Shown: positions 4,622 through 35,529, counted from the stretch's first letter. The stretch is 64,000 nt of DNA from Escherichia coli (GCF_017348835.2 NZ_CP072315.1), one strand, 5' to 3'. Made by a program: numbers and translations. Notes: generated from the sequence alone by a model not told the origin.

Positions 4622-5494
4622 ATGTCTAAAAATAAAGCTCGCAGTAAAGCCCTTCATCAAACCTTTAGTGAAATTATTCCAGAGATGGATAAGGCGCTAA
4701 ACAAACAGCTCTTAGAAGTTCTGATGAAATATACAGAACGTGATAATGAACTGATTGTTATTTTGAATGAGGACGGCCCAAATATCATTGAACTTAAGTC
4801 TCTTAAGCCTGTGTCTTTGTTGGCCGAAAAGCTTTCTGCTTATTCAAGCTATTATCATGTGGATGTTGTGGAGCTCGTGGTCAAGAAAATTGATTTCGAA
4901 GGAGCTTATAAGCTTCTTAAAGCTTCCCCAGATGTACCACTTTTTAAAAGCTTAACTGAACTGGATAAATATCTTGTTGAGGAGTTTGAAAAATACGGAT
5001 TAAATTCATTTCTTGACGTGGATAATCTGGATTACTCACTTGAAAAAGCCAGTGAACTCAAAAATGAGCAGTTAATAAATTGGGTTTCGGACATCATTTG
5101 CAAACGTGAAAAATTAACTTTACGTAAGCGTTTTGATGTCGCAGTAAAGGCCCACTACGAAAATGTAGAAAAAATGTATGATACCATTCGTCCGTTAATG
5201 AAAAAACTGGGTTTCCCAGAAGATCTCATGACGCACACCTTTAGTGAGTTAAGCGTTTTTGAAACTAAAGGATGGGACCATGCAATAAAATCGAAAATTG
5301 AGACTCTCGCTAAGCGTGAAACTCAATATTTAGATGATGCGGCTAAAGCAGAGAATCGACGTCTTGTAACAGAGAAGTTGGAGAACTCTTTAGCGATTGC
5401 ACCAACTAAACCAACAAGAAATTGGTTACATATTGCCGGAATTGCCTGTTTGGTAGTCTGCACGTTCATGTATGTAACTAATAAATTTATTTAA
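4622..5494 (+). CDS. Hypothetical protein, helical with C-terminal membrane anchor
   Basis: 290-aa ORF; hydrophobic C-terminus IAGIACLVVCTFMYV; upstream RBS-like stretch. Confidence 0.5.
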   Translation: MSKNKARSKALHQTFSEIIPEMDKALNKQLLEVLMKYTERDNELIVILNEDGPNIIELKSLKPVSLLAEKLSAYSSYYHVDVVELVVKKIDFEGAYKLLKASPDVPLFKSLTELDKYLVEEFEKYGLNSFLDVDNLDYSLEKASELKNEQLINWVSDIICKREKLTLRKRFDVAVKAHYENVEKMYDTIRPLMKKLGFPEDLMTHTFSELSVFETKGWDHAIKSKIETLAKRETQYLDDAAKAENRRLVTEKLENSLAIAPTKPTRNWLHIAGIACLVVCTFMYVTNKFI

Positions 5495-5551
5495 TCCTGT
5501 TAAGGGGGAACCCTAACGGGGCTTCTCTTTGAACAAATCGAGGAGCGGAAA

Positions 5552-5929
5552 ATGTCATATCTTGAATATATCAATGAAGTAAAAGTGTCCGGGATAGTTA
5601 TCAGTGCTGTGGAGAAAAAAATGACTGACCAGAGTATAGGTTTGTTAATAAAGCTCAAAAATAGGATGAAGACAGAAGTTGATGGTGAAATCACTGAGAG
5701 AGAATTTTCAGTTCAAATCAAGGTGTCGCCTGAAATGTATTCAACCTGTTTCACTGGTATAAATCAGGGTGATGAGTTGATGGTCTCCGGTTATATTGTT
5801 GTCGATACTATTATGATTGAAGGGAGAGAACATCCTCTTGACTACATGAGAGTGGTAGCAACAAGTAAGTTGGCTCACATACCTAAACCTCTAAAAGGTT
5901 TTGGACAAAGTAGCTTTAATCAGATCTGA
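5552..5929 (+). CDS. Hypothetical protein (125 aa)
   Basis: ORF with GGAG-type RBS upstream; no motif recognised. Confidence 0.45.
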   Translation: MSYLEYINEVKVSGIVISAVEKKMTDQSIGLLIKLKNRMKTEVDGEITEREFSVQIKVSPEMYSTCFTGINQGDELMVSGYIVVDTIMIEGREHPLDYMRVVATSKLAHIPKPLKGFGQSSFNQI

Positions 5930-5949
5930 CATTAAACCCACCCTAAAGG

Positions 5950-5980
5950 GGAGAAATCCCTTCATGGGATTTCTCCTTTT
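5950..5980 (+). terminator. Intergenic hairpin + U-tract (terminator/attenuator-like)
   Basis: GGAGAAATCCC-ttcat-GGGATTTCTCC then TTTT, immediately followed by GGAG and the ATG at 5990. Confidence 0.55.
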
Positions 5981-5989
5981 GGAGTCCCC

Positions 5990-6967
5990 ATGAAACAAAA
6001 ATTTAGGGCTACTGCAATAAGTAGTAATCAACTTAGTTTTTTTTCTATACTCGATATAGATGAAGATGAAATAACGCAAATAGTTGATTCACCCAAAGAG
6101 CATTTAAATGATGCTTACACGTCCGGATTAAACTTTAAATCAGAAGAAAGTAACATTTCTGAGATAAATTATGATTCTGAAAGGCGTGAAAATCACCTTT
6201 ATGAAAAATCCAAATTACTTAAAAATCAGATTTTGCATACAATTAATTTTGCAGCAGAAACAGATTATCTATATACGGTTGAAGAATATAACCCAGATTT
6301 GGGTGGTCTGGTAATAGAATGGACCCCTGAGGATGTGTATGTTGTTTTTCTATCCGCTATGGAAGAGTCTTTGGAAATCATTAAAGAACTAGTGTTGAGG
6401 AGAAAGTTATTCTTCAAAGATGACAATGGTAATATCACAGTGAATCCACTTTTAGAAGCTGAAACACGGTGGTATATGTCAAAATCATTTGAATACACTT
6501 GTTTATGTCATGGACTTGATGCATGTGAATTTAGAGCGGAATTAAAATCATGGCTCTATTATCATTCGCATCGTTCGATTAGTGAAAACACGAAATTAGC
6601 TGAATGCAGGAATGATGATGAAATCATTTTGCATGATTGCAATGACGATATGGGCTGGGACATCTTCTTTGATCAGGATTATTTAATGTCAGAAAAAAAA
6701 CTGGCTGTTAAATGGACTGACAGGGAAATTATGGATGTTTACATAAAAGCTTTTAAATCCACATTAGAGTTGTTTGACGAGCTTGTTTCATGTGATCTGT
6801 TAACTAAACGAAACGCTTTTGGCAAGTTAGAAATCAATCCAATATTCGAAAATCATTTTGAATGGATCATGTCTGAAGCTTTTGAAATAGTGGGAAATCA
6901 TCTTGGTTATAATGTGCCTCAAATCAGGAAACTGATGGCAACTATTTGCCAAATGAATCTCAAATAA
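5990..6967 (+). CDS. Hypothetical protein (325 aa)
   Basis: Long AT-rich ORF with RBS; no motif recognised. Confidence 0.5.
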   Translation: MKQKFRATAISSNQLSFFSILDIDEDEITQIVDSPKEHLNDAYTSGLNFKSEESNISEINYDSERRENHLYEKSKLLKNQILHTINFAAETDYLYTVEEYNPDLGGLVIEWTPEDVYVVFLSAMEESLEIIKELVLRRKLFFKDDNGNITVNPLLEAETRWYMSKSFEYTCLCHGLDACEFRAELKSWLYYHSHRSISENTKLAECRNDDEIILHDCNDDMGWDIFFDQDYLMSEKKLAVKWTDREIMDVYIKAFKSTLELFDELVSCDLLTKRNAFGKLEINPIFENHFEWIMSEAFEIVGNHLGYNVPQIRKLMATICQMNLK

Positions 6968-7024
6968 AATGCCACTGGCAAACATCTGCCAGAGGGCGGT
7001 GTTTGCATTTTACCGGAGTTAAAA

Positions 7025-8083
7025 ATGTCTAATGCCGCTATGAAGTTAAATGAAACATCTTCTGATGCTTATGAAAAATTAGAAGCTCTTCTTTCCCCGG
7101 ATGTTATAAAGTTAAAACATTATGTGGATAAAGGTGAGTATCTTTTAGTTCTAGCAAAGGACCTTTTTGGTATTCCAGAAATGGATCCAAAGATGGCTGT
7201 GCCTGTTTTCAAAACTAAAACCTCGTATCGAGCTCCGCTGAACAAAGACTACATACCAAATCCCCGAATACTTGAACAAGTGGTTAAACTGCTTATCAGT
7301 CCGGATATAGATTTAAGTGTGTGTCTTAAAGGTGAGTCCGGTTCTGGCAAGACTGAAATGGTAATGTACATTAGCCACATGATGAATTGGCCGCTGACAA
7401 TTAAGCAGATCAACAGCAATATTCGAGTTGATGAGCTTGAAGGTGAGCGCAGTCTTAATGGTGGTAATACAGGTTTTGTACACAGCGATTTGGTAACGGG
7501 ATTTCGTAATGGTCACCTCATTCTTCTGGATGAAGTGGACAAAATCGATCCTGATACGGCAGCAAAACTTCACATGCCCATTGAACGTAAGCCCTGGTCA
7601 CTCAGTGCTAATGGTGGTGAGGTTATAACTGCTAATGGCTACACGCGATTTATTGGTACTGCAAACACAAACATGAGTGGAGGCGCTCGCCGGTTCGTTT
7701 CTTCTCAACGTCAAGATGCAGCTTTTATAAAGCGGTTCTTGATAGTTGAAATGGAGAAGCCCGACAAAGTTGCTTTAACCAATGTGCTTACTAAACGATA
7801 TAGCTCTTTGCCTTTTCAGGTCATTGAGAAGTTCGTAAGAGTAGCGATTGCAGTAAATGACTCTGGTACAGAAGACAGTGTGATGGATATTCGTCAATTA
7901 GTAGCTTGGGTTGGCACGTCGATGACGTTAAAAACCTTTAGTCTTCTTGACACTTTCAAAATAGCTTTTGCTTCTGCTTTACCTTTACATGTGGTCGATC
8001 TTGTTCTTCAAGCTATAGATCTTTCTCTTGGCGAAGACAAGGATAAATCGCTGGAGTATTTCACAGCAAAAAAGTCGAGTTAG
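7025..8083 (+). CDS. AAA+ ATPase, MoxR/CobS-like
   Basis: Walker A GESGSGKT, Walker B HLILLDEVDK; size (~350 aa) matches CobS/MoxR-type ATPases. Confidence 0.75.
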   Translation: MSNAAMKLNETSSDAYEKLEALLSPDVIKLKHYVDKGEYLLVLAKDLFGIPEMDPKMAVPVFKTKTSYRAPLNKDYIPNPRILEQVVKLLISPDIDLSVCLKGESGSGKTEMVMYISHMMNWPLTIKQINSNIRVDELEGERSLNGGNTGFVHSDLVTGFRNGHLILLDEVDKIDPDTAAKLHMPIERKPWSLSANGGEVITANGYTRFIGTANTNMSGGARRFVSSQRQDAAFIKRFLIVEMEKPDKVALTNVLTKRYSSLPFQVIEKFVRVAIAVNDSGTEDSVMDIRQLVAWVGTSMTLKTFSLLDTFKIAFASALPLHVVDLVLQAIDLSLGEDKDKSLEYFTAKKSS

Positions 8084-8418
8084 ATGGGATTTGTTATGAA
8101 ACCTCTGATATTTGTATCTCAGAGTTATCCCATCTTGAATTTAGTGCGTTTTTAAGTACGGATGGTGCTGCTACCATTGCTATAGCAAAAAACGGAACTA
8201 ATTTTACTGGACTTATGCAACTGAATAACGACTATTCTTTATTGTTTTATCATGATGGTAAAATAAATATGGAAGGTCTGATTAAACAAATGGAATTAAA
8301 AGGTTATATGTATCAGGGAGCAATGGGCAATGATGATGTTGTTGCTGAGTTTCCCGGTATTCTTTTAATTTCACCAGAGAAGCTTTAATATCAACCCTAT
8401 CGGGAAATCTTTCCCGTT

Positions 8419-8441
8419 GGGGAGGGTTTCCCCTTTTTTTT
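8419..8441 (+). terminator. Intergenic hairpin + U-tract directly upstream of an RBS
   Basis: GGGGA-gggtt-TCCCC followed by an 8-T run, then GGAG and ATG at 8452; an additional CGGGAAA/TTTCCCG hairpin at 8401-8416. Confidence 0.5.
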
Positions 8442-8451
8442 GGAGAAACCC

Positions 8452-9579
8452 ATGACTTTAAATACTTCAATGCTTAACAAAGTATCTGCAAAACAAATCT
8501 CTGAGAATTTTGCAAAATCATATCCAGATTTACTGGAAGGTGCAGTTATAACAAAAATTGAAATAAGTGGCTGTCAAGGATCGCGTCGAACCGATAAAAT
8601 CGATTTGTCTTATGATGGAGATGATATTACGGATCAAAAAAGCGTATCTAAAAGCGAAGTACGCTGGATTGACATAAAAGCCCTTAGCTTCAAAAGTACG
8701 ATTACCAGCAGAATATCAACTCTTTGCTCACGCTTGTGCATCCGCTATAGCAATATGTGGATTTTACCAGTATCCAGTATGGAAGAGTTTCTGGAAGGGG
8801 CCCAAGAGATTGAACGAGAGTTTCAGGCAGGTATTCAAAACGTTGTAGACAATTATGAGATGCATATTGAGGCTGAAAAAAATAGAAGCCCAAGAATGTC
8901 TTCTTTGATTGATCAGTTGAAATTAACTAAAGATGATTTCATAAAATCCTTTAGATTTAATATTGCTCACTTTATTCCTTTTACGCCTATTAGCGTTGAA
9001 GGTGATGAAACCCAGGACTACTATCAGGAACAATTGATAACAGATCTGGCAGAAGAAGCAATGAAGGTTTATGAAAAAATTAGCAAAAATAACAATTTGC
9101 GCTCAAGTACTATTGACCGACTGAAGCAAATGCAAAATAAGATCATTAGCTTCATGTTTATACATAAAGAGGCGGCAGTACTTGCAGAAGCTATAAAACA
9201 CATAATGAATAATTTACCTAAAGGTGCCATTTCTGAACCTCGCGACGTTGCGGTGTTACAGCAGTGGTTTTATTTCATGAGTGATGCTTCAATGTTAAAG
9301 CGTATTATTTCAGGAGAGCAAAAGGTTACTGACTGGTTGGAATCTATTACCAGATCATTTAATCAAAGCTCACAAACAGAACCGAACGCGCTACAGAACA
9401 CAGGTATTGAAGCTATTTTAGATTCAACAAATGTGTTCCAGGTTGAACCTGTCGTAGAGAACGATATAAATAACAGCACGTTTTCAAACACTGATCCTGT
9501 AGCTGAACCTGAGAAATCAGTTTCGCAACAGGAAGACAATGTTGAAAATGGTTTTGATATCGAGCTCAAAGGCTGGTAA
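8452..9579 (+). CDS. Hypothetical protein (375 aa)
   Basis: Track ORF starts at TTG 8440; ATG at 8452 has a GGAG RBS. No motif recognised. Confidence 0.5.
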   Translation: MTLNTSMLNKVSAKQISENFAKSYPDLLEGAVITKIEISGCQGSRRTDKIDLSYDGDDITDQKSVSKSEVRWIDIKALSFKSTITSRISTLCSRLCIRYSNMWILPVSSMEEFLEGAQEIEREFQAGIQNVVDNYEMHIEAEKNRSPRMSSLIDQLKLTKDDFIKSFRFNIAHFIPFTPISVEGDETQDYYQEQLITDLAEEAMKVYEKISKNNNLRSSTIDRLKQMQNKIISFMFIHKEAAVLAEAIKHIMNNLPKGAISEPRDVAVLQQWFYFMSDASMLKRIISGEQKVTDWLESITRSFNQSSQTEPNALQNTGIEAILDSTNVFQVEPVVENDINNSTFSNTDPVAEPEKSVSQQEDNVENGFDIELKGW

Positions 9580-9599
9580 CTGTTTGCTTTATTAAAAAC

Positions 9600-9641
9600 C
9601 CCAGATGGGTACTTCACCATCTGGGTGAGTACCCCTTTTTT
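9600..9641 (+). terminator. Intergenic hairpin + U-tract
   Basis: CCCAGATGG-(8 nt)-CCATCTGGG stem, then ACCCC and TTTTTT, 16 nt before the ATG at 9657. Confidence 0.55.
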
Positions 9642-9656
9642 ATAAAGAGGTATTCT

Positions 9657-11669
9657 ATGAAATTAGATCTTAAATCATCACCGCGCCATATTAAGCGTTT
9701 ACAGAATATAGCAAAAGTCATTAGCGGCTTAGGCGATGTAAGAGTTGTAATAGACGACAATACCAAAGGACCGTATTTTGATCCTGTAAATAAAGTTTGT
9801 GTTTTACCAAACGGCGATTATAGCGATGATGACTTTGTCAGTCTGATTGAAGGTTTTACCTGTCATGAAGCTGGTCATGGTCGCTATACCGACAGCGAGG
9901 TTTACAGTGACGCCTTTAATAGTGTTCTCAAGTCATCTGAAGGGTTTACACGCTTCGATGACGGAATGAATGCAGAGTTTGAGAGCCTCGCTGAGAAACG
10001 TAAAGCTTATAGCAGGGCAAAACGTCTTACCGGGCTTATAAATCTGTTCGATGATGTACAGATGGAAGAGAAGGTTGGTAACGATTATCCGGATGCAAAG
10101 CGGCGGCTTGCAGCCACTTACGCACTGATGGTTAAAGCCGGAAGGATGACTCCTGATATATCTTCTCGTCCGGAAAATCCTGTCCTATTTATTGAGTGGT
10201 ATCTGCTTAACTCATTGCGAGTAAAAGTCCTTCAGCAGGCAGGTCACAAAGAAACACTCGATCCGTTTTTTGACTATGCCCAAAAGATACTTTCTCCAGT
10301 AATTTCTGATGTTGAGGAAATTTTTCATGATGCTCTTGGTTGTGAAAATACTCAGGGCTGTGAATCCCTTGCTCGTAAGACCCTGGCTCTTTTAGAGAGA
10401 CTGCGGGATGAGGCAAGGGAACAACAGCAGCAGACAGAGCAGGAGGAGCAGGAGGCATATGATGAATCCGAGACCGATACCGATACCGATACCGAATCAG
10501 AAGATAAATCGCTTGAGTCGACTGATAGTCGTGAGGATGATTCTGAGGACGATAGTGAAGGTCAGGCAGATACTTCCGATAACTCTGATCTTGCTCAAGA
10601 GGGATGTTCTGAGCCTTCAGAACTTGCTGAAGATAACGAGGGAAATAATGAACCCACCGGTGGCAATCCCACAGGTGATAACATTATTGAAGACGATACT
10701 GATGCGATTAACCCTTCCGAGAGTGAATCAGATGAAGCCAGTTCGACTAACGTTGAAGATGAAAGTAACTTTTCATCGGCTCAATGGGAGATACTGGCAG
10801 ATTTGTTGGATGCCTTTCTTGGCAGTGATGAGGATAGCGAAGATTATCACGATGCTTTGGCTAAAGAGATTGAAGGTATTGCATCAAAAGTATCCGATGA
10901 CGTGAAAGCCGAATTCGGTGCTTCTGAATGGGATATCCCTGATCTCCTTATCGATTTGAATGTTTACAATGAGGCTTTGTCTCTGAGTCATTCAATCGGT
11001 AGCGACTTGTCTGTTTTACAGCAGGTTAAAATGCGTGGCCGAAACAAAACTCATGAGCGTGGAATTACCTTCGATGGAAATCGATTAATTCTGTCACCAA
11101 TGGGAGTTCGTGATGTCTTCAGAGCTCAAAGCGAATCTAAAAATAGAGGGCATGTTGGCCTCGTATTAGTTCGTGATATTTCAGCGTCAATGGCTAATGA
11201 TGAAAGATATATTCATGCCATTAAGTCAGATCTTGCTTTATCGATGGCCGCTGAAAGTTTGTCAAAAATGCATGTCTCCAATATAGTCTTTCCCTTCAAG
11301 GAAAGTGAATTTGAGATTATCAAAACGTTTGATCAAAGCGTTGAGGAATCTCTATCGAAATTCACTCTTGGATGTAAGGGTTATTATACCCCTACGGGAT
11401 CGGCTTTAATGGCAGCTGTTGATCTGTTACTTGACAGCCAATTCGATAGGAAAATAATTTTTCTTATAACTGATGGTTATCCGAATAAATCGGAATTTAC
11501 TATCGGCGAAGTTATGGAAAAGGCTAAATGTAATGGAATAGAAATCGTTGGTGTTGGTATTAAGACTGATGAAATAATTGGTTTTGAAACGGACACTTTC
11601 GTAACAGTTGATGATACTTCTTTATTGTCTATTGAAGTCAGTAAGCTAGTTCATCAAATACTTTCTTAA
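9657..11669 (+). CDS. vWA-domain protein, CobT-like, with acidic linker and N-terminal HExxH motif
   Basis: C-terminal vWA with MIDAS DISAS and ITDG; central highly acidic D/E/S/T-rich segment; HEAGH at residues 70-74. Architecture resembles CobT, the usual partner of CobS-like ATPases. Confidence 0.7.
   Translation: MKLDLKSSPRHIKRLQNIAKVISGLGDVRVVIDDNTKGPYFDPVNKVCVLPNGDYSDDDFVSLIEGFTCHEAGHGRYTDSEVYSDAFNSVLKSSEGFTRFDDGMNAEFESLAEKRKAYSRAKRLTGLINLFDDVQMEEKVGNDYPDAKRRLAATYALMVKAGRMTPDISSRPENPVLFIEWYLLNSLRVKVLQQAGHKETLDPFFDYAQKILSPVISDVEEIFHDALGCENTQGCESLARKTLALLERLRDEAREQQQQTEQEEQEAYDESETDTDTDTESEDKSLESTDSREDDSEDDSEGQADTSDNSDLAQEGCSEPSELAEDNEGNNEPTGGNPTGDNIIEDDTDAINPSESESDEASSTNVEDESNFSSAQWEILADLLDAFLGSDEDSEDYHDALAKEIEGIASKVSDDVKAEFGASEWDIPDLLIDLNVYNEALSLSHSIGSDLSVLQQVKMRGRNKTHERGITFDGNRLILSPMGVRDVFRAQSESKNRGHVGLVLVRDISASMANDERYIHAIKSDLALSMAAESLSKMHVSNIVFPFKESEFEIIKTFDQSVEESLSKFTLGCKGYYTPTGSALMAAVDLLLDSQFDRKIIFLITDGYPNKSEFTIGEVMEKAKCNGIEIVGVGIKTDEIIGFETDTFVTVDDTSLLSIEVSKLVHQILS
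10473..10493 (+). repeat. In-frame hexanucleotide tandem repeat (ACCGAT) x3.5 encoding TDTDTDT
   Basis: accgataccgataccgatacc read directly in the acidic linker of the vWA gene. Confidence 0.6.
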
Positions 11670-11685
11670 TAAACTCTACCCAATC

Positions 11686-11712
11686 GGGGCAAAAGGCCCC
11701 GGTGGGTCTTTT
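11686..11712 (+). terminator. Intergenic hairpin + U-tract
   Basis: GGGGC-aaaag-GCCCC then GGTGGGTCTTTTT, downstream of the 11669 stop. Confidence 0.5.
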
Positions 11713-11740
11713 TGCTCCATGAAGGAATAAGGAGCAAAAT

Positions 11741-11962
11741 ATGACTCAGATAAAAACTTACCGTGTAGAACATGAAAAAGTCGGTGCGATGCATAAAGTC
11801 CGTATTTTCGGACGTGTTGGTGAAGTTATAAGCAATGATAGCCCTCAGGAAAGAATCTTCCGCGAAGTCACTATAGCGGAGGGTAATAGCCAGCAGGCTG
11901 CGTTACTTGTAGATAACTACATACAGTGTCTTGAGAATAATGGCTTCACGACTGAAGCATAA
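11741..11962 (+). CDS. Hypothetical small protein (73 aa)
   Basis: ORF with AAGGAG-like RBS (aataaggagcaaaatATG) and its own downstream terminator. Confidence 0.45.
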   Translation: MTQIKTYRVEHEKVGAMHKVRIFGRVGEVISNDSPQERIFREVTIAEGNSQQAALLVDNYIQCLENNGFTTEA

Positions 11963-11967
11963 ATGTT

Positions 11968-11991
11968 GAGGGCCCCCGGGCCCTCTTTCTT
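11968..11991 (+). terminator. Intrinsic terminator
   Basis: GAGGGCCC-cc-GGGCCCTC perfect stem followed by TTTCTT. Confidence 0.55.
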
Positions 11992-12075
11992 AAATTCTGC
12001 GTTGTGGGTTTCTCCCTGTCTTCTGCACCGCAGAAGGCATTGAGAAACTCACAATGCCAGATAAGAGAGATCATC

Positions 12076-13308
12076 ATGACTTATGCATCCCCGGCTCTTC
12101 GTCGTAATCCACAGGAAGTATCTGAACACTTTATTAAACTCGTTCATGCTCGAATTGCTGAAGTGTCTGGCTGGAAGTATATATTCGAAAGAATACCTGC
12201 TTTCAAAGACGCTTGTGCAAAAGCCCCGAGCCAGGTTCCTTGCCCGTTTACTGGCGCAGGGAAATCGAAGTTTCGTTTCCGACAAAAAGACCTTTATACC
12301 GGATGTGCGATCCATAATGACTTTCCGGTAAATGAGTTTTGCGACGGAATTGATGTTCTGGCGAAATATTATGAATTAAGTAAAACGCAGACTTGCAAAA
12401 AGATTCTCTCAGATTTTTTCGGGATGGATCTGCATGCTCCGTTAACTGACGCCGACATTGAAAATGAACGACGCTATAAATCAGCAGTTCGTGCCACAGA
12501 AACTCTTGACCGAGAGGAAGTGGCAAAGCGAATGCGAAAACTTGATGTGATGTATCACTATACCGGTGAAATCAAGCCTAATACTCCTGTTGCTTTGTAC
12601 CTCCGTAATCGTGGGATCTCCCGCTTACTGAGTCACTTACCAAAGGATTTAGGCTTTAATAACCGGATCTACTATTGGGATAAAGATAAGCAGAAATCGA
12701 TTATCTATCCGGGAATGATTGCGATCTATCGTGACACCCGAGGTCGGCCTCTGACTATTCATAGAACATACGTAGACAAAAATGGTGATAAGGCACCTGT
12801 AGAAAATCCAAAGCTGATGATGAAGCCTCCTGCCGATATGACAGGTGGCTCAATTCAGTTGTTTGACCCTCACTATGATTCAGGTAGTTCGACCTGGACA
12901 CTGGGAGTGGCTGAAGGGATCGAGAACGCGCTTTCTGTTGTAGAAGCGACTTCAACACCATGCTGGGCAGCCAGCTCCGCATGGTGCCTTGAAAACGTTA
13001 CTGTTCCTGATTTTTTACTGCCTCCGCCGGATGTAAAATCTATAAACTTTTATATCTGGGCGGATAAGGATATTGCTAACTCACAAGGCACTCGTGCCGG
13101 TATTGAAGCTGCTCAGCGACTTCAAAGCCGCATGGTTGAGTTTTTGGCTAAACGATATCCCGCATCAAAGCTGACAATTGAAGTCTTCGAACCAGCACAA
13201 GATATTCCTGATGGGAAAAAGGGTATCGACTGGAACGATGTTCTCCAGTTAACAGGGCAGGATGGATTCCCGATTCACTGGGCTCCTGAATGTCTTAATC
13301 AGCTGTAA
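12076..13308 (+). CDS. Toprim-domain DNA primase-like protein
   Basis: Toprim signature (conserved Glu in LGVAEGIENALS, DxD in YIWADKD), N-terminal Cys cluster (VPCPFTG, CAIHNDF) suggesting a zinc-binding region. ATG at 12076 has an AAGAGAGA RBS; track start 12004 is GTG without RBS. Confidence 0.55.
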   Translation: MTYASPALRRNPQEVSEHFIKLVHARIAEVSGWKYIFERIPAFKDACAKAPSQVPCPFTGAGKSKFRFRQKDLYTGCAIHNDFPVNEFCDGIDVLAKYYELSKTQTCKKILSDFFGMDLHAPLTDADIENERRYKSAVRATETLDREEVAKRMRKLDVMYHYTGEIKPNTPVALYLRNRGISRLLSHLPKDLGFNNRIYYWDKDKQKSIIYPGMIAIYRDTRGRPLTIHRTYVDKNGDKAPVENPKLMMKPPADMTGGSIQLFDPHYDSGSSTWTLGVAEGIENALSVVEATSTPCWAASSAWCLENVTVPDFLLPPPDVKSINFYIWADKDIANSQGTRAGIEAAQRLQSRMVEFLAKRYPASKLTIEVFEPAQDIPDGKKGIDWNDVLQLTGQDGFPIHWAPECLNQL

Positions 13309-13339
13309 CAACGATAACTCCCCCGCTTTTTGCGGGGGG

Positions 13340-13387
13340 GGTTATCTTATCAATATTATATTTTAAAATTGTATTGATAAGATAACC
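13340..13387. repeat. Perfect 16-bp inverted repeat with 16-nt AT-only spacer
   Basis: GGTTATCTTATCAATA - ttatattttaaaattg - TATTGATAAGATAACC, directly after a CCCCCGC/GCGGGGG hairpin (13320-13338) downstream of the primase-like gene. Confidence 0.75.
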
Positions 13388-13578
13388 GCTTTCCTTCGTG
13401 ATAATTACCTGCCTTTAAGGTCTTTTCACGGCTGAGATGCTTGCTCAGTTAAATAAATGTGCGGTACTACTGGCTATGGTCGGTTGTATGACATGGTTAT
13501 TCCATAAACTATTAAAACCCATAACGGGAGTATTACCGTTATGGTGATGCTCGTCGTTTTACATCGGAGAGCATTTTA

Positions 13579-14100
13579 ATGAATTTTCAAATTAACGAAG
13601 TTTTTAATAAATTTGCTGCTGTTATAAAATCGCGCATCGTCAATGAACCATCGTCATGCTATTTGCTGCATGATAATGAGATAGATATAACGATTTTGAA
13701 ACATAGCATATTAGAAAATGACAGAAACCTGTTGTACGTAGTTCGTCCTTCAGGAACGTGTTTGTTGCGTTGTGACAAATATTTCTATCCGAAATATTAT
13801 CTTCGTTGCCGTGGAGATTATAAGTCATTCATATATGTCCATCTTGATCTACATAGTGGTGAAGCTAAAGAAATCACATGGGAGCAAGCAGACGATATGC
13901 TGTCTAGTCCAGGAAAACCCCCATTAAAAGGGAATCTTGGACGATTTGAGTATATAAAAGTTGTGGTTGAGGACCTTCGTATTCGAGGTTACGCTGATTA
14001 TCTTCCTGCGTATAATCTTGATGACCTTCGCCGTTTTGCCTTACAGGACGACCGCCCATCCCTTGTCAGATACATTGACAATGTCATGGCAACGGTCTGA
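13579..14100 (+). CDS. Hypothetical protein (173 aa)
   Basis: ORF with RBS (cggagagcattttaATG); no motif recognised. Confidence 0.45.
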   Translation: MNFQINEVFNKFAAVIKSRIVNEPSSCYLLHDNEIDITILKHSILENDRNLLYVVRPSGTCLLRCDKYFYPKYYLRCRGDYKSFIYVHLDLHSGEAKEITWEQADDMLSSPGKPPLKGNLGRFEYIKVVVEDLRIRGYADYLPAYNLDDLRRFALQDDRPSLVRYIDNVMATV

Positions 14101-14178
14101 TTGATTGCTAATTGATTTACATATTTTCCCTGATGGCCAACCTGCATCAGGGAGGCCTCAATAACGAATGGAGGCTGT

Positions 14179-15057
14179 ATGAAGTTAGCTACGGACCTGG
14201 TAAAAGCTATTTTGATTAGAAATGGCGTTGAACCAGTAAATATAAGCGAATCATCTAAGTTATCTTTGAAACAACCACTGACAGAACTTAAATTCAGTTT
14301 ATATTTGCGAACTGAGCATTTATCTCACTTCCTACCCGGTTATGTTTATTCTATAAAAGAATGTCCACTGTCATATGACATCGGGATCGAAATTCAGAAA
14401 ATCTTCGAAAGTTTACATTTGTTAAACGAAGAATTTGAATCCCTCGGTTTTGTTTCTGTATGGATAGAAATGCATCAAAGCATTTTTGAACAAAGTCGGT
14501 TTAAGAAAAGTAACTTTACTTTTCGGGAGGAAGAGGTCGAGCTTGCTAAAGGGCTTGTTTGTTCTCACAATTCACAAATAAGTAATGCGGCTTATTTCTG
14601 GCTTCAGCACTTTGAGGAGTTTATGATTTATGTTCGTAATAAGCTTATCGACCTCTTTCGAGAGGCCTATGACCTGATCCTTGGAATGCAGCAAGTATTT
14701 TTCATTCGGGAAAAGGAAGAGCTGTTGAAAACTATAAGTTATGGCGATGAGCTGTATGAGGTGAAATTCATGGCGGCTGAGCTTTACTCTATCGAACAGA
14801 ACTTAAAGTGTTCTGAATCGATAAGTACAAAATCTCAAGCTTCGGCATATATTAACCGCATCCGTGAGTTTGTGCGTTCGGGGTGGAGGCAGGGCTATAT
14901 AGTCTGCCATCATAAGCGAAGTAATCAAATTTCATCATTGTCATTACCGATGTACTTGAAAGATACGTCAGGCCGAAGTGCTCGAAAGCGAGTAAAACGT
15001 CTTATATCTTCTACAGTTTGTGGTAGAAATAAAGATTTAGGTCTTACAGATTTTTAA
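14179..15057 (+). CDS. Hypothetical protein, member 1 of a tandem array of ~300-aa genes
   Basis: 292 aa; same size class and N-terminal pattern as the next four genes; own RBS (ggaggctgtATG). Confidence 0.5.
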   Translation: MKLATDLVKAILIRNGVEPVNISESSKLSLKQPLTELKFSLYLRTEHLSHFLPGYVYSIKECPLSYDIGIEIQKIFESLHLLNEEFESLGFVSVWIEMHQSIFEQSRFKKSNFTFREEEVELAKGLVCSHNSQISNAAYFWLQHFEEFMIYVRNKLIDLFREAYDLILGMQQVFFIREKEELLKTISYGDELYEVKFMAAELYSIEQNLKCSESISTKSQASAYINRIREFVRSGWRQGYIVCHHKRSNQISSLSLPMYLKDTSGRSARKRVKRLISSTVCGRNKDLGLTDF

Positions 15058-15075
15058 TTAAATTATACCCATGTG

Positions 15076-15111
15076 GGGATCACACCCCATATGGGAGTGA
15101 TCCCTTTTTTT
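15076..15111 (+). terminator. Intrinsic terminator between array genes 1 and 2
   Basis: GGGATCAC-(13 nt)-GTGATCCC stem followed by a 7-T run, then GAGAGG RBS and ATG at 15128. Confidence 0.6.
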
Positions 15112-15127
15112 ATTGAGAGAGGATCAC

Positions 15128-16063
15128 ATGAAAATTATCGAAAAAATCATTAATGCCTTTTTGGTTGTTCAACATAAAAAAATACAGGTTAAAAACATTA
15201 CATTTTTAGACAATGGGCAGGGCATGTTCTCTGGTATGTCTTTTGATGCTGATGTTTCACTGGAGTTTATGTATGAATCAGCAAAAGCATATAGTTCTTG
15301 TTTCTGTGATATTCCCTTTCCAGGTTTTGAAGATGCAAATCTGGAGGAAATTACGAAATTTCAATTAGATGCTTTGAAGCAAAGAAAGAATCATTCTTTC
15401 TTTGTTAACCATTTGAGGTTTCCTATAGTTTTAAGGGAAGGGTGCAAAATCGAAAGAGGAGAAGTCTATTCAATTTCGAATTGCACTTATAATAAAGAAA
15501 GATTGCAGTATCTTTTTTCTCAGGATATTTACGGTAAGTTGTATAATTCCTTAGAGAAAGAATTAAGCTCGTTTTTCTCATTTATCAATGTTGAGGTGCA
15601 CGAGTTGTTAAAAGATGCTGTATGCTTTGCATTAAAAATCCTGAATAAGATATCTTTGGATACACCTGAAAGACTTATTAAAGCTTTTAATTATCGTGAC
15701 TGGTATTGTAGTTACGATGTTGAGCTTTTTAGGAAAGGCTTACCTGGTCATATTCTGGAAGAGCTCATTGCTCCAGATATCTTACTTTCAGACCTTAACG
15801 GTTGTAGAAAAATACTTAGAAATGCAAAACGAGTTCTAAATGGACATACACAAACCAATTGTGTTTATATTAAATATGAATGGTGGTTGGGGCCTGTTGA
15901 TACCTCACACTCAGCTAAGTTGATGTCTGACAAAGAAATTAATAACCGAAGTGACTTGAAGAATTTTTCAAAGGTCTTTTTCAAAGAGTGTTTAAGTTCT
16001 GGTAAGTCGGAATATGAAAACCATCTTAGTGAAAAAGAACATGCGCTTCGCTATAATTATTAA
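15128..16063 (+). CDS. Hypothetical protein, array member 2
   Basis: Track start 15113 is TTG; ATG at 15128 has a GAGAGG RBS. 311 aa. Confidence 0.5.
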   Translation: MKIIEKIINAFLVVQHKKIQVKNITFLDNGQGMFSGMSFDADVSLEFMYESAKAYSSCFCDIPFPGFEDANLEEITKFQLDALKQRKNHSFFVNHLRFPIVLREGCKIERGEVYSISNCTYNKERLQYLFSQDIYGKLYNSLEKELSSFFSFINVEVHELLKDAVCFALKILNKISLDTPERLIKAFNYRDWYCSYDVELFRKGLPGHILEELIAPDILLSDLNGCRKILRNAKRVLNGHTQTNCVYIKYEWWLGPVDTSHSAKLMSDKEINNRSDLKNFSKVFFKECLSSGKSEYENHLSEKEHALRYNY

Positions 16064-16084
16064 TTAAAATTATTTTCTCCCATA

Positions 16085-16111
16085 GGGATTTCTCCCTATG
16101 GGAGAAATCCC
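16085..16111 (+). other. Perfect 12-bp stem hairpin between array genes 2 and 3
   Basis: GGGATTTCTCCC-tat-GGGAGAAATCCC; no clear U-tract after it. Confidence 0.6.
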
Positions 16112-16131
16112 TCTATTAAGAGGGTATTGAA

Positions 16132-17052
16132 ATGAATGCTATACAAAAGTTAGTTGAATCTATTCTTGTTAAAATGGGTTTTGTTGGCGCTGTAGTGGAA
16201 AATATATATTTGGATTCAAAACCATTTCGGCATATTCGATTTGTGGCTGATATTCCAGTAATATCTTTTCTACCTCATTTGGTGAAATATCTTAAGGGTG
16301 CAGACCATCTTTACAGTGGTAACGATGATTTGCATCCTCTTTTCATTTATTTTTCCGAAGCGGCTACATTAAAAGCAGGTCCTGTAAATCTCGCGAACTT
16401 TCGTTTTGAAGTTTCTATAGCTTCAACTCATTTACGACTGGTCTCAGAGCAGCCTGATTTGCTTTTCAAAGGATTTAACCGGGATAATCTAGAATACGTT
16501 TATTACCGCTCAGATTTGGCCTCTAAGGATCTTATACTAGGCCTTGTTGAACACGGTTCTCCTTTCATAAAACATCTACATGGACTTATACAAAAGCGAA
16601 TTTTAAACGAGTTCTCTCTGATTTTTTCTGTTCTTGAAAAGATTTTAGAAAGCGCGAAGCCACAAATTCTTGCTTGCTTCCATAGTGTTGATTATGAAAT
16701 GAACGTAAAAATAATAGCCGAAGCTATACCTGAAACTGTATCTAATCAGATAGTCACATCTGATTATATAGTTAATTCTATATCAGATGCGGACAAGTTT
16801 ATAAATCATGTTCGTCGCTATTTAGCAGGCAGGGTAATGAAGAGGCGGATATACGCTGAATTAGATGTTTGTGAAGAAACATCAAGTATTTCACTAGTGA
16901 ACTTAGGATGCTTTACGTCTCCTCTGCTCGTTACGGAATATCAAATGTTTAAGCCACACTCTTCAGGGTTATATCGAAAAGCTATAAACAACTCCTTAAA
17001 ACAGTTCAAACCAGAAATGCATGTACCTTCTGAAGAACTCTTTTATAATTAA
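16132..17052 (+). CDS. Hypothetical protein, array member 3
   Basis: 306 aa ORF; RBS agagggtattgaaATG. Confidence 0.5.
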   Translation: MNAIQKLVESILVKMGFVGAVVENIYLDSKPFRHIRFVADIPVISFLPHLVKYLKGADHLYSGNDDLHPLFIYFSEAATLKAGPVNLANFRFEVSIASTHLRLVSEQPDLLFKGFNRDNLEYVYYRSDLASKDLILGLVEHGSPFIKHLHGLIQKRILNEFSLIFSVLEKILESAKPQILACFHSVDYEMNVKIIAEAIPETVSNQIVTSDYIVNSISDADKFINHVRRYLAGRVMKRRIYAELDVCEETSSISLVNLGCFTSPLLVTEYQMFKPHSSGLYRKAINNSLKQFKPEMHVPSEELFYN

Positions 17053-17062
17053 TCTAACCCAT

Positions 17063-17100
17063 CCGGGAACCTGCTTCCCGGTGGGAAGCACTTCCTTTTT
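17063..17100 (+). terminator. Double hairpin + U-tract between array genes 3 and 4
   Basis: CCGGGAA-cctgc-TTCCCGG followed by GGAAG-ca-CTTCC and TTTTT; then GAGGTAGTGTA RBS region and ATG at 17119. Confidence 0.55.
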
Positions 17101-17118
17101 AGTCATGAGGTAGTGTAA

Positions 17119-18057
17119 ATGTTTAAAGAATCTGACCACGTGGAATTTGTTAGTGCCTTTCTTTATCAAAATTTAGGCCTTAATGTTTCCGCTGACGATA
17201 TAACCGTTCAATTATCTGATACTTCGTTCGACAAAGTAACCTTTGATTACGATGTAGATATCGATAATTTAAATTGTATGTTGGATCTCTACATATCTGA
17301 GCTAATAAAGCACAACGCATCTTACTCCGATTCTATTCTTTTGAAACAAAAAATAATTTATTTTCTTGGAGTATTTAAGAATTTCGGATTTTTTACGTTT
17401 GATATTCGCGGATATAGTAATACTTTAAGCCCAGTTAAAGTTATTGATATTGTTTCAATGATTATTAATGACTGTGAAGAGTTATCTAAAGCTAATTCTT
17501 CTACTGATGCTATAAGAAATCTTTATCTCGATAAAATGAAGGTGGATGGGAAAGTGTTAGTTGCGAAATTTGCACTTAAACAGTTTTTTCATTCCGACTT
17601 TGGTGACTTTATCTCATTTGTCGAGAAAAGAATTACAGATTGTCTTAATGAAACTTTAAGGATTATCAAAGCTGTTGAACATGGCTTTGTACGTGTAGGG
17701 CAGCATAAGATTAATCGCCGTATTAATGATGACTTAAAGTTATGCATTGATTTCAATACTGATGATTATCCGGCAAATATGCCAGATATATATATTAAGT
17801 TTAACGATACATTTGATGGGAACGGGGCGTTATATTGTGACAATGATGCCCTCATATCCCTCTATACCGATGTTGCTTCAATTATCAATGTGCCGGTGAT
17901 GATGGAAGTAAGATTGATCAATAAAAGAGGGCGTGTTGTCTGTGATTCTTCGCATTCAACTTACGTATCTCTCGAAAGTAATGACCGATACAGAGTAACT
18001 GATCGCACATTACTAATAACTGAAGCTTTTGACGATTTTCGTAACGCGTCTCAATGA
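17119..18057 (+). CDS. Hypothetical protein, array member 4 (clear paralogue of member 5)
   Basis: Blocks shared with the next gene: KMKVDGKVLVAKFALKQFFHSDFGDFISFVEKRIT vs LMQVDGQVMIARFALQQFWDTHFIGLITFVSESIT, and HSTYVSLESNDRYRVTDR vs HTVYVSELTGGRIKIHDR. Confidence 0.6.
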   Translation: MFKESDHVEFVSAFLYQNLGLNVSADDITVQLSDTSFDKVTFDYDVDIDNLNCMLDLYISELIKHNASYSDSILLKQKIIYFLGVFKNFGFFTFDIRGYSNTLSPVKVIDIVSMIINDCEELSKANSSTDAIRNLYLDKMKVDGKVLVAKFALKQFFHSDFGDFISFVEKRITDCLNETLRIIKAVEHGFVRVGQHKINRRINDDLKLCIDFNTDDYPANMPDIYIKFNDTFDGNGALYCDNDALISLYTDVASIINVPVMMEVRLINKRGRVVCDSSHSTYVSLESNDRYRVTDRTLLITEAFDDFRNASQ

Positions 18058-18176
18058 TCCTTTTGCTTCAGTCCAAAAAAGTAACTTTGGTTGGCTGAAG
18101 ACACTTGTCTATGACAATGTAAAATCTGTCGCTGGCATCTTCTTTTAGCTTAACCAAATTTTTATCTAACCCAGTG

Positions 18177-18191
18177 GGGAAGTCGCTTCCC
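18177..18191 (+). other. Hairpin in 5' region of array gene 5 (copy of the gene-4 upstream element)
   Basis: GGGAAG-tcg-CTTCCC; followed by the same GAGGTAGTGTA-N-ATG leader seen upstream of gene 4. Confidence 0.5.
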
Positions 18192-18228
18192 TTCTGGGGC
18201 ACTTCCTCTCAAATTCGAGGTAGTGTAT

Positions 18229-19185
18229 ATGACACATTCATCTGATGATAAAAACTATGTCCGAGCAGTTCTGAGTTATCTTGGCATAGATTTTGATGAG
18301 GCGGATATAGTATTAAGTGTTTGCCATTGTCAAAGTGACGAGCTTTCTTTTACCTGTAATATCAAAGCTATTGAACTCAAGAATGTTGTTGATTTATATG
18401 TCGATAGTATCTCTGAGAATGAAATAGAAGCTTTAAACAGAGAATCTTTAAAATCGCGACTCTGTTACTTTCTTGAGGTGTTTGACGCAGTCTCTGGTCA
18501 GTACCTTGAAATTTCAGGAAAACACTTTGCAACTAGTCGTTTTGAATATGATGATGTTTGTAGTGAAGTTCTTAGCATGTCTAATGATGTTTCTCAGTCG
18601 AAAGGTTATGACCGGGATGAATATAACAGACTGATGCAGGTTGATGGTCAGGTTATGATTGCCCGTTTTGCTTTGCAACAGTTCTGGGATACTCATTTTA
18701 TTGGACTAATAACATTTGTATCTGAGTCTATAACATCGAGCCTCTATAAAGCTTATGAAACTTTTAGTGATATTAGTTTGGCTTGCTATAAACTGAGTGA
18801 ATATTCTTATTCACGCTCTATCAACAGTGAATTGACCCTTAATATTTCACTTAAAGAAAATGACTTCTGTGAGGACCTATCTGATTGCTATATGGAAGAT
18901 GAGGCTTTACCTTCTGGTAGGGTAATTTCTCGACGCAACAATGACTCCATAATAAGTATTTATGAGAGCTATGCTGCGGCTTCTTATATTCCGATGATTG
19001 CATCTTTGGAAGTCGTTGATGAATACGGCGAAGTGGTTACTGACCTCTGCCATACCGTTTATGTTTCAGAGTTAACCGGTGGGCGGATTAAAATCCACGA
19101 CCGTAATGACTTAGTATCTGAAGTTTTCGATAACCTAAGAAATTTAAATCTTGCAGTTGGAGATTCAGTTTCACAAGCTGCTTGA
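18229..19185 (+). CDS. Hypothetical protein, array member 5
   Basis: Track start 18223 is GTG; ATG at 18229 has a GAGGT RBS. Paralogue of 17119-18057. Confidence 0.6.
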   Translation: MTHSSDDKNYVRAVLSYLGIDFDEADIVLSVCHCQSDELSFTCNIKAIELKNVVDLYVDSISENEIEALNRESLKSRLCYFLEVFDAVSGQYLEISGKHFATSRFEYDDVCSEVLSMSNDVSQSKGYDRDEYNRLMQVDGQVMIARFALQQFWDTHFIGLITFVSESITSSLYKAYETFSDISLACYKLSEYSYSRSINSELTLNISLKENDFCEDLSDCYMEDEALPSGRVISRRNNDSIISIYESYAAASYIPMIASLEVVDEYGEVVTDLCHTVYVSELTGGRIKIHDRNDLVSEVFDNLRNLNLAVGDSVSQAA

Positions 19186-19224
19186 TTCTTTCCCTGATTT
19201 TGATTTTTTCTCACATACTCTTAT

Positions 19225-19249
19225 GGCACGGTTTCCGTGCCTTTTTTTT
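19225..19249 (+). terminator. Intrinsic terminator closing the paralogue array
   Basis: GGCACGG-ttt-CCGTGCC followed by an 8-T run. Confidence 0.7.
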
Positions 19250-19448
19250 GCCTCGCTTACAAGCGTCTACTCCTCTTCTACCTATCCCACCTTACATCAC
19301 CACTTAAAATCTATCTTTCTAATTCCATTATCCTTTTCGTAGCCTCTAATGCTCTGGTATGAACATACTCTTTAAACTCAAAAAAGTGCTATTAACGAAA
19401 AAAAATCCCTAAAGAGATTTGTATACTGTTCTCAACCAAGGAGAGCTC

Positions 19449-19724
19449 ATGAATGAACTAAAATCCAAAAACGAGAACAGTACCAAAAGCAACTTTCCCC
19501 CGGTTGATAATCAGTTTTGCTTTTACCATGTTGATTTCAGCATAGAACGACTACTTTCTACGGCCGAGGATCTCCAGCTTGAGTACATCTTCCAGAAACC
19601 TGGAAGTGAAGTAAGAAAGGATTTGGTTGAGCGATTCGAACGTGGAGAGCGCTTTGTTACAGCTTCACACTGTGACAATTTCTGTGAAATCCTTGGTTGT
19701 CAAGGCCATCAGGAAAATGCATAA
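19449..19724 (+). CDS. Hypothetical protein (first gene of an eight-gene operon)
   Basis: Track start 19419 is TTG; ATG at 19449 is preceded by AAGGAGAG. Confidence 0.45.
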   Translation: MNELKSKNENSTKSNFPPVDNQFCFYHVDFSIERLLSTAEDLQLEYIFQKPGSEVRKDLVERFERGERFVTASHCDNFCEILGCQGHQENA

Positions 19725-19768: not shown

Positions 19769-20359
19769 ATGATTGGAGAAAGTATTTTTGACTGGGTAAT
19801 TTACGGAATATCCATTTTGATATTTGCCTCAGCACTAATTGAAGGAAAGACAACTCGCTACCCAGCACTTTTTTTCTATGGGAGTTTAATTTTAATGTTA
19901 ATCCTGATAGTTGCTGGAGGCCTTAACTGGTGGTTCTACAGGTCAAAATATGGCGCAGTAATCGTTATCTTCACAGTGGTTTCTTTACTGATGACTCGAT
20001 TCCGCCTGGTCATATATAAATTAAGATTAAGAAAGTTAGTTTCAGAGATCAGATTTCGTATAAAAACGGGTTTTCGTATAATTCTTGTTTTGTCGGATAA
20101 TGAGGATGAGCGTAATGTTCTGCTGTCTATGCTTAGCAACGTATTGCCAGAGCAAACGCTTATTCACACGCGTGATGCTCTCGGACCTCATTCAGGGCCT
20201 ATCCTAAAAGCTCTTGAGCTACATCATCAACAGGGAACAGGTTACATACTCGTCTGTGAACAACAAATCTCAGCGCGTACGTGGTTGAGTATCGTAGAAA
20301 ATGGGAAACCTGATACATCTATAGCTGTTAATTTTCATTCGATCCCAGAAATGGAGTGA
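19769..20359 (+). CDS. Membrane protein (three N-terminal TM helices + cytoplasmic domain)
   Basis: Hydrophobic segments WVIYGISILIFASALI, LFFYGSLILMLILIVAGGL, AVIVIFTVVSLLM; tightly spaced after the previous gene. Confidence 0.5.
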   Translation: MIGESIFDWVIYGISILIFASALIEGKTTRYPALFFYGSLILMLILIVAGGLNWWFYRSKYGAVIVIFTVVSLLMTRFRLVIYKLRLRKLVSEIRFRIKTGFRIILVLSDNEDERNVLLSMLSNVLPEQTLIHTRDALGPHSGPILKALELHHQQGTGYILVCEQQISARTWLSIVENGKPDTSIAVNFHSIPEME

Positions 20360-31337: not shown

Positions 31338-31422
31338 AATTTTCCTCGTACGGCTGGTACGGCCAGCAGAAAACGTTGCTGTACAGAAAGGTGCTGCCCG
31401 GAAAGCAGCACCTTTCTGTCTG

Positions 31423-32702: not shown

Positions 32703-32724
32703 GACATCCCCTTAATTAATAAAA

Positions 32725-34293: not shown

Positions 34294-34310
34294 CGTAAGA
34301 TTTAGCCTGC

Positions 34311-35519: not shown

Positions 35520-35529
35520 TATGATTTCC

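Follow-up and report, generated by a model that had tools for sequence, protein, structure and literature searches.

RNA-unfolding translational coupling, in which the Shine-Dalgarno (SD) sequence or start codon of a downstream cistron is buried in local structure, is known from Escherichia coli rpmI-rplT (at +52 nt spacing), f1 VII-IX and MS2 coat-lysis/replicase (PMC12548453). We analyzed a 64,000-nt stretch of E. coli DNA (GCF_017348835.2, NZ_CP072315.1; the whole stretch is called the window below, and positions are counted from its first letter) that carries a tandem array of five genes, M1 to M5, within an operon whose SD sequences and starts are likewise buried in local structure. Stop-start spacing in this operon (~57-78 nt) is similar to that of rpmI-rplT, and the upstream stop codon usually lies within one ribosome footprint of the structure, as it does there. 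Two features set the operon apart from the described coupling systems: one stereotyped two-hairpin cassette precedes about a dozen consecutive cistrons, and the anti-SD lies in the spacer rather than in the upstream open reading frame (ORF), so that opening would need an indirect three-way strand exchange via an SD mimic in the first hairpin.

Repetitive extragenic palindromic (REP) sequences and bacterial interspersed mosaic elements also place stable GC-rich hairpins between the cistrons of a polycistronic unit; unlike them, the cassette has no REP consensus, is confined to one plasmid operon, is paired with an SD-masking hairpin and keeps a fixed register with the start codon. With regard to gene content, MoxR-type AAA+/VWA pairs (RavA-ViaA, CbbQ-CbbO, NorQ-NorD) usually remodel a specific co-encoded client. 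The operon of the array resembles such pairs in encoding an AAA_5 ATPase and a VWA protein, and differs from them in that the unit also holds DUF3150 and a primase-like Toprim protein. A further comparison is offered by the leading-region anti-defence islands of plasmids (Samuel et al., 2024, PMC11541004), which share with the array the property of being uncharacterized same-strand gene clusters, confined to mobile elements and found on conjugative plasmids, with structured intergenic DNA. The array differs in that its genes encode mutually homologous proteins of ~300 amino acids (aa), are invariant in IncHI2 plasmids and are under purifying selection, and in that its hairpins are short mRNA-sense SD-masking stems rather than long promoter hairpins in single-stranded DNA. 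Our literature searches found no functional study of the M1-M5 ORFs or of the intergenic cassette.

M1 to M5 form one family with two subtypes

The preliminary description of this DNA had reported five consecutive same-strand genes of similar length, and five ORFs of 292-318 aa are indeed found on the + strand at 14179-19185. M1 (14179..15057; 292 aa; isoelectric point (pI) 8.2; WP_000762004), M2 (15128..16063; 311 aa; pI 7.1) and M3 (16132..17052; 306 aa; pI 6.6) belong to what we call type A, while M4 (17119..18057; 312 aa; pI 4.8) and M5 (18229..19185; 318 aa; pI 4.3, net charge -30) belong to the acidic type B. The spacers between them measure 70, 68, 66 and 171 nt. The starts of the longest ORFs of M2 (TTG 15113) and M5 (GTG 18223) are probably wrong, and ATG 15128 and ATG 18229 were preferred because both the RefSeq annotation and SD geometry point there.

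The paralogy of M4 and M5 was confirmed, since blastp aligned the two proteins over their full length (27% identity over 309 residues, E=3e-36) and the peptide similarities quoted for them are real. This is the only pair that blastp detects within the array. M1, M2 and M3 had been thought to share only size, spacing and a loosely similar N-terminus, a view that profile comparison overturned. Using hhalign with profiles built from five orthologues per member, M2 and M3 matched collinearly (probability 95%, E=2e-8, 1-252 vs 1-246), as did M1 and M2 (P=7e-4, 1-242 vs 1-258), and M1 and M2 each gave one weak on-diagonal match to M4/M5 (P ~1e-3). All three weak pairs scored better than every one of 28 block-shuffled nulls. 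Two proteins from other lineages bridge the type A members in hidden Markov model matches: L8_271 (271 aa, lineage L008) matches the M1 profile at 5e-21 and the M3 profile at 2e-6, and L11_306 (306 aa, lineage L011) matches M3 at 2e-83, M1 at 3e-8 and M2 at 9e-8.

When the profiles were enriched to 18 sequences for type A and 17 for type B, the two subtypes aligned collinearly over 234 columns in hhalign (81% probability, P=1.2e-5), with a score of 46.2 compared to a maximum of 27.1 in 60 shuffles; unrelated operon proteins, serving as a negative control, scored 12-17. AlphaFold models of M3 and M5 have their secondary-structure elements in the same order, and paralogue matches in AFDB50 reached TM-scores of 0.56-0.70 at 13-17% identity. 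Because the profile, bridging-sequence and structure evidence agree, we conclude that homology extends to all five members, including M1-M3 with M4-M5, and that the array is one family of ancient tandem duplicates with two old subtypes, near-neutral A (M1-M3) and acidic B (M4-M5). The suggestion of a tandem paralogue family on a mobile element thus stands, the element being an IncHI plasmid backbone. Profile comparison ruled out three other ~300-aa or neighboring operon proteins as further members, namely those encoded at 4622-5494 and 5990-6967 and the product of M0, the gene directly upstream of M1.

The family is confined to these plasmid elements

No motif had been assigned to the five proteins from their sequence, and none could be assigned from family libraries either: NCBIfam and PADLOC gave no match to any of them, and PHROG matches were partial and had E>=0.005, so that none was usable. 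The precomputed Pfam annotation was "-" for all homologues of comparable length, and a PDB sequence-profile search returned no match, with no solved structure similar by profile or by fold. We considered a tyrosine-recombinase core-binding domain, a SAM-like fold of four helices that is normally followed by a catalytic domain with an RHRY tetrad, and rejected this assignment.

Relatives of the family amount to 15-18 clusters among 5.8 billion proteins and 41 matches among 1.84 billion representatives, and the AFDB50 matches are exclusively uncharacterized plasmid proteins. A scan of a genome collection with the type-B profile found none; its species-representative genomes lack these plasmids. 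One protein with eight weak type-B profile matches, P0069 (2,078 aa), is a Gram-positive antigen I/II LPXTG adhesin, and its match is spurious. Taken together, these searches show that the M1-M5 family is confined to these plasmid elements and lacks any detectable relative whose fold is known.

The array is under purifying selection and changes by gain and loss of members

Gene for gene and with unchanged lengths, the array recurs in plasmids of the groups IncHI1A (L002) and IncHI1B (L003/L004), where its proteins show 45-64% aa identity; contigs of the more divergent lineages were recovered from public assemblies. The ratio of nonsynonymous to synonymous substitution rates (dN/dS) of the array was 0.16-0.22 between IncHI2 and a variant whose array proteins are 81-89% identical to it, and 0.14-0.24 between IncHI1A and IncHI1B. 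M1, whose orthologues are 42-86% identical to it, gave 0.15-0.20. Most flanking backbone genes gave 0.09-0.27, while a 73-aa ORF reached 0.81 in one comparison in which dS was very low, and the dN of the array was only modestly above that of the operon enzymes. The array had been described as rapidly diversifying, which these values do not support, since they are like those of its neighbors, the layout is the same in IncHI2, IncHI1A and IncHI1B, and 1,112 of the 1,125 PLSDB plasmids that match window positions 13500-19500 do so at 99% identity or more. The array is therefore under ordinary purifying selection, and what changes is its membership.

All five members, in the order M1-M2-M3-M4-M5, are present in IncHI2, IncHI1A, IncHI1B, L007 and L015. 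L005 carries M1-M2-M3-M5, L012 and L014 carry M1-M3-M4-M5, L011 carries M2-M3-B-B and L008 carries one A plus one B. Across 10 lineages, every intact array has at least one type A and at least one type B gene, with A always 5' of B. Only fragments are found in a contig of Photorhabdus tasmaniensis (L006, GCA_053578495.1), where the syntenic backbone is kept and the array (7130-10150 of the contig) has decayed to ORFs of 198, 92 and 183 aa. Among natural IncHI2 plasmids, M3 is truncated by the insertion sequence (IS) IS903B and M4 by IS21 or IS3 (L016, NZ_CP043034; L017, NZ_CP098184; L018, NZ_OU015329), and these natural knock-outs indicate that single members are dispensable for plasmid persistence. 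In other matching records, this 6-kb region contains IS1, IS2 or IS26.

These data also bear on whether the five ORFs are genes at all. They could be the remains of genes in decay, or ORFs that arose by chance in AT-rich DNA, as might be suspected from their uniform annotation as "hypothetical protein", their low GC (0.33-0.38) and the existence of the decayed Photorhabdus array. However, ORF lengths are kept between plasmid groups despite the divergence of their proteins, dN/dS is ~0.2, the AlphaFold2 (AF2) models are confident, and every gene has an SD and a conserved leader. Conserved lengths and identity, the models and dN/dS effectively refute this explanation, which we consider almost certainly wrong.

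A two-hairpin cassette masks the Shine-Dalgarno sequences of the operon

Each spacer of the array contains a GC-rich hairpin, as had been noted, yet the assignment of an own hairpin and leader to each array gene was too narrow, since the same cassette is found operon-wide, including before M0 and genes further upstream. In seven lineages, hairpin 1 is GC-rich, has 9-15 bp and often takes the form CCC....GGG / CCC....GGG; hairpin 2 starts 0-4 nt after it, carries the anti-SD as its 5' arm and GAGG/GGAG in its 3' arm, and ends 0-10 nt 5' of the ATG. The SD is paired in the minimum free energy structure of all cassette instances across the seven lineages. On the + strand of the window, the cassettes lie at 13519..13581 (M0; folding z -6.6), 14127..14181 (M1; z -3.6), 15068..15130 (M2; z -7.1), 16074..16134 (M3; z -5.9), 17058..17121 (M4; z -4.4) and 18170..18231 (M5; z -5.8), and further upstream at 5496-5554 (before the gene hyp125, starting at 5552), 8395-8454 (DUF3150, start 8452), 9600-9659 (VWA, start 9657) and 11678-11743 (hyp73, start 11741). 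Looser variants precede the + strand genes at 5990 and 7025. When the two strands of the 64-kb window were scanned objectively, the cassette was found at nine gene starts, all in this operon, and no cassette was found at the genes 3' of the intrinsic terminator that ends it (19225-19249, + strand; GGCACGG-TTT-CCGTGCC followed by T8).

The folding of the six cassettes of M0 to M5 (z -3.6 to -7.1) was equaled in stability by 0/200 dinucleotide shuffles, compared to z-scores of -0.7 to +0.4 for three spacers downstream of the terminator. Folding is more favorable for the sense than for the antisense strand, and the location of the G.U pairs in the sense strand, combined with the SD register, assigns the structure to mRNA. 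To assess covariation, orthologous cassettes were concatenated in an alignment that was not fitted to structure; a mixed-paralogue MAFFT alignment had put the stems out of register. Over 140 pairs, 90.3% of cells were paired, compared to 44-55% when the partners were slid, and compensatory double changes occurred in 15 pairs, compared to 1-6 when slid, a level reached by 0/500 shuffles. In the M2 cassette, for example, GTGATCC/GGATCAC is replaced by GTAATCC/GGATTAC in IncHI1. An Rfam E-value scan of window positions 1-26000 returned two chance-level matches (11062-11111 and 20036-20067), neither overlapping a cassette. Together, these results show that a stereotyped, covariation-supported SD-masking RNA cassette serves the whole 15-kb operon.

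M4 and M5 do share a leader (GAGGTAGTGTAAATG vs GAGGTAGTGTATATG) and an upstream hairpin region (a 31-nt repeat at 77% identity), as the preliminary description had pointed out. It had taken whole expression units to have been duplicated, an interpretation that holds only in part: the cassette also precedes non-paralogous genes, and the likeness of the leaders does not stem from a recent duplication. Whether paralogues or orthologues are compared, the leaders of type B are 70-82% identical, with the M4 and M5 proteins only 27% identical, which indicates that the leader is under selection or has undergone concerted evolution. The leaders of M4 and M5 (17050-17121 and 18162-18231) share the lineage-specific state GAGGTAGTGTA in IncHI2, and those of L002 (7923-7996 and 9038-9108) share GAGGAAGTGAA in IncHI1. 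Such lineage-specific states hint at concerted evolution or at a shared trans-acting partner.

How the cassette may act

The predicted probability that the SD arm is unpaired averaged 0.09. The SD-masking stems have predicted stabilities of -7.6 to -13.8 kcal/mol, and hairpin 1 of -13 to -25 kcal/mol. IncHI transfer is thermosensitive, and an RNA thermometer was therefore considered; like ROSE and fourU elements, the cassette sequesters the SD in a hairpin of the 5' leader. Unlike theirs, its stems are long and stable, and for ten cassettes the predicted SD accessibility stayed flat from 20 to 50 C, leading us to reject this explanation. CsrA sites were considered and set aside on inspection, with GGA motifs located mostly within stems rather than loops.

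We propose instead that the cassette would hold each ribosome-binding site closed by default, and that translation of the preceding cistron may be needed to open the next one by RNA-unfolding translational coupling, which would keep the operon products low and in proportion. A terminating ribosome would melt the base of hairpin 1, allowing the SD mimic in the hairpin-1 apex to capture the anti-SD arm and thereby free the next SD. Consistent with such an exchange, the anti-SD arm is able to pair as well with the hairpin-1 loop and 5' arm (mean -10.5 kcal/mol, z -3.2 vs shuffles), and the anti-SD/SD duplex has a mean of -11.7 kcal/mol. This alternative pairing between hairpin-1 apex and anti-SD, defined on IncHI2 alone, was kept in 97.7% of cells in five lineages, compared to 51-61% when slid. 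In 19/36 junctions, the distance between the upstream stop codon and hairpin 1 is 1-13 nt, and when the effect of a terminating ribosome was simulated by deleting the outer half of the 5' arm of hairpin 1, predicted SD accessibility rose to 0.5-0.9 in some cassettes.

Several observations weigh against coupling of this kind. The simulated opening was clear in a subset of cassettes only, with the mean rising from 0.09 to 0.29. The alternative pairing has only three compensatory pairs, a number that 61/500 shuffles reach; its covariation is weak because most columns are invariant. Coupling cannot explain cassettes far from a stop codon, such as those of M0 (210 nt) and M5 (112 nt), and in 9/36 junctions this distance is at least 74 nt. 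Finally, the U-tracts 3' of the anti-SD arm would also fit a terminator or attenuator.

The last point raises the possibility that the cassettes are leaky terminators or transcriptional attenuators and thereby produce graded expression within the operon, with the apex/anti-SD stem and U-tract forming the terminator and hairpin 1 the antiterminator. Terminator-like sites are 2.4- to 3-fold enriched in the operon and fall at cassettes (e.g., 8402-8432 followed by T8, and 11683-11703), and a U-run follows the anti-SD arm in many cassettes and lineages. Since this U-tract follows the anti-SD arm and not hairpin 1, the cassette is terminator-like in its alternative fold only, leaving 19225-19249 as the sole canonical terminator. 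However, hairpin 1 is transcribed first and is far more stable, so that the terminator fold would rarely form, and the 3' arm of hairpin 2 always holds the SD in fixed register with the ATG, which points to translation. In addition, some cassettes have no U-tract (M3 and M5 in IncHI2), and fifteen genes are conserved as a single unit with a strong canonical terminator at its end. We therefore regard attenuation as quite unlikely.

Alternatively, there may be no switch, with hairpin 1 acting as an intercistronic mRNA stabilizer or processing signal (a REP-like 3' barrier) and hairpin 2 as a constitutive translational damper that would limit the expression of costly AT-rich plasmid genes. Such a division of labor would suit two hairpins that are both stable and predicted to be temperature-insensitive, that occur as well at a distance from upstream stop codons (M0, M5), and whose covariation is stronger than that of the alternative pairing. 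It leaves two observations unexplained, namely the conserved complementarity between hairpin-1 apex and anti-SD and the usual placement of the upstream stop codon within ribosome reach of hairpin 1. We consider this explanation doubtful, if less so than attenuation.

Leader of the toprim gene and the toprim-M0 gap

The leader of the toprim gene (12006-12050, + strand) has a different, long hairpin of ~45 nt (GGGTTTCTCCCTGTCTTCTGCACCGCAGAAGGCATTGAGAAACTC) in all lineages, and its SD region is unpaired. In the gap that follows the gene, a conserved terminator-like hairpin (13318-13340, + strand), whose arms are extended by GATAAC/GTTATC, shares its GTTATC with a palindrome with 23-nt arms (13340-13387, + strand) that covaries between IncHI2 and IncHI1. 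Next to it, a non-coding + strand block of ~110 nt (about 13395-13505) is better conserved across seven lineages than the proteins on either side. The gap (13309-13578) yielded no promoter of sigma-70 consensus; the sigma-70 scans gave fewer matches than in shuffles and are hence uninformative. A candidate upstream ORF of 7-34 codons, located at ~13437-13547 in the window, ends 3-12 nt 5' of hairpin 1 of the M0 cassette in all five lineages examined (the window plus L002, L005, L008 and L011). It could encode a leader peptide that takes the place of an upstream cistron, or it could be a coincidence.

Operon layout and source plasmid

The window is the backbone of an IncHI2 plasmid of E. coli, and the record of pEC22-CTX-M-15 is identical to it, with M1-M5 all named "hypothetical protein" in RefSeq. 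Gene order in this record is trhN, trhI, three hypothetical genes, an AAA family ATPase, a 57-aa gene, DUF3150, a VWA protein, a 73-aa gene, a toprim-domain protein, a 173-aa gene (M0) and M1-M5, followed by several small genes, a Tus-like terminus-binding protein, an integrase, Hha and the ter cluster. M1-M5 occupy the distal portion of an operon of ~15 kb, all on one strand, in the backbone of IncHI-type (MOBH, MPF-F) plasmids; the operon runs from the gene at 4622 through small genes, the AAA_5/MoxR-like ATPase, DUF3150, VWA, the 73-aa gene, DUF7146-Toprim, M0 and M1-M5 to the terminator. A terminator 3' of the last array gene is also kept in IncHI1A, IncHI1B and L005. M0 (13579..14100, + strand) encodes 173 aa, is kept in all lineages and carries the leader cassette.

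The + strand module of AAA_5 (MoxR-like), DUF3150, VWA and DUF7146-Toprim_3 genes at 7025-13308 is collinear in every related element examined. The primase-like Toprim protein matches a PHROG DNA primase at 1e-27, which is the sole usable library match among the array and its neighbors, and no functional study of DUF3150 on plasmids was found in the literature.

The hosts of the PLSDB plasmids matching the array region are mainly Escherichia, Salmonella, Enterobacter and Klebsiella, and the majority of these plasmids are typed as conjugative, MOBH and MPF-F. Among complete E. coli genomes, 275/5,426 have the region. The operon has a GC content of 0.33-0.45 (4600-19200), compared to 0.50-0.56 for ter and neighboring regions (29000-46000), and an Hha gene lies ~6 kb downstream of it. 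It is plausible that the AT-rich operon is a target silenced by H-NS/Hha, perhaps tied to IncHI thermoregulation.

Possible roles of the proteins

The reading that we favor, tentatively, is that the A and B proteins form an accessory complex which acts, together with the upstream proteins, in the processing of plasmid DNA or in establishment, and whose expression is coupled as proposed above. The two types would act together, probably as a hetero-oligomer, and would be accessory and individually dispensable components beside the co-transcribed AAA+, VWA, DUF3150 and primase-like proteins. This reading is preferred because the genes are co-transcribed and co-conserved, the two charge classes co-occur, selection is purifying, members are redundant and no defence-related signature was seen. 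Lineage-specific gain and loss and the natural IS knock-outs would fit accessory, partly redundant genes.

There are points on the other side. The rule of at least one A and at least one B comes from lineages that are not independent, and plasmids with a disrupted M3 or M4 persist, so that the function is non-essential or redundant. The putative link of the array proteins to the ATPase and VWA protein is drawn from co-transcription and co-conservation, and the A-B interaction is likewise putative. The fully specified version, in which a ribosome-actuated three-way switch chains about a dozen cistrons in proportion to serve a stoichiometric A/B hetero-oligomer of new fold that acts with the MoxR-like ATPase, the VWA protein and the primase-like protein in establishment, strikes us as improbable as a whole.

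Next after the A/B complex we rank an arsenal for anti-defence or host interaction, in which each paralogue would be directed at its own host defence or exclusion factor, an arms race would account for duplication and loss, and the type-B proteins, being acidic, may serve as nucleic-acid mimics, for which the DNA-mimic anti-restriction proteins ArdA and Ocr, with their highly acidic surfaces, were considered as a model. The family is confined to conjugative elements, varies in membership between lineages, has individually dispensable members, includes the strongly acidic M4 and M5 and has no housekeeping homologue; in addition, anti-defence genes are known to cluster on plasmids (PMC11541004). 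Nevertheless, the dN/dS of 0.14-0.24 is not above that of neighboring backbone genes, and the array, invariant in >1,100 IncHI2 plasmids, shares its layout with those of IncHI1A and IncHI1B. Its ~300-aa proteins are co-transcribed with AAA+, VWA and primase-like genes beside a maintenance region with Tra2, Tus-like and integrase genes. Because oriT and Tra1 genes are absent from the 64-kb window, a leading-region position of the array is not established, and no structural match of the array proteins to known anti-restriction or anti-CRISPR folds rose above noise. The data lean mildly against an arms-race role, and we consider the anti-defence explanation unlikely.

Significance

In Escherichia, Salmonella, Enterobacter and Klebsiella, IncHI plasmids are major vehicles of heavy-metal resistance and of mcr-1, CTX-M and NDM, and the array accounts for ~5 kb of their conserved backbone so far annotated only as "hypothetical protein". 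Our analysis defines a previously undescribed family, with two subtypes, lineage-wise gain and loss and no known fold, and a distinctive covariation-supported SD-masking cassette repeated across a 15-kb operon. If the cassette is a coupling switch, it would represent an unusually regular natural design for the proportional expression of many cistrons, and if the proteins have a role in establishment or host interaction, they would constitute a backbone target common to all IncHI plasmids.

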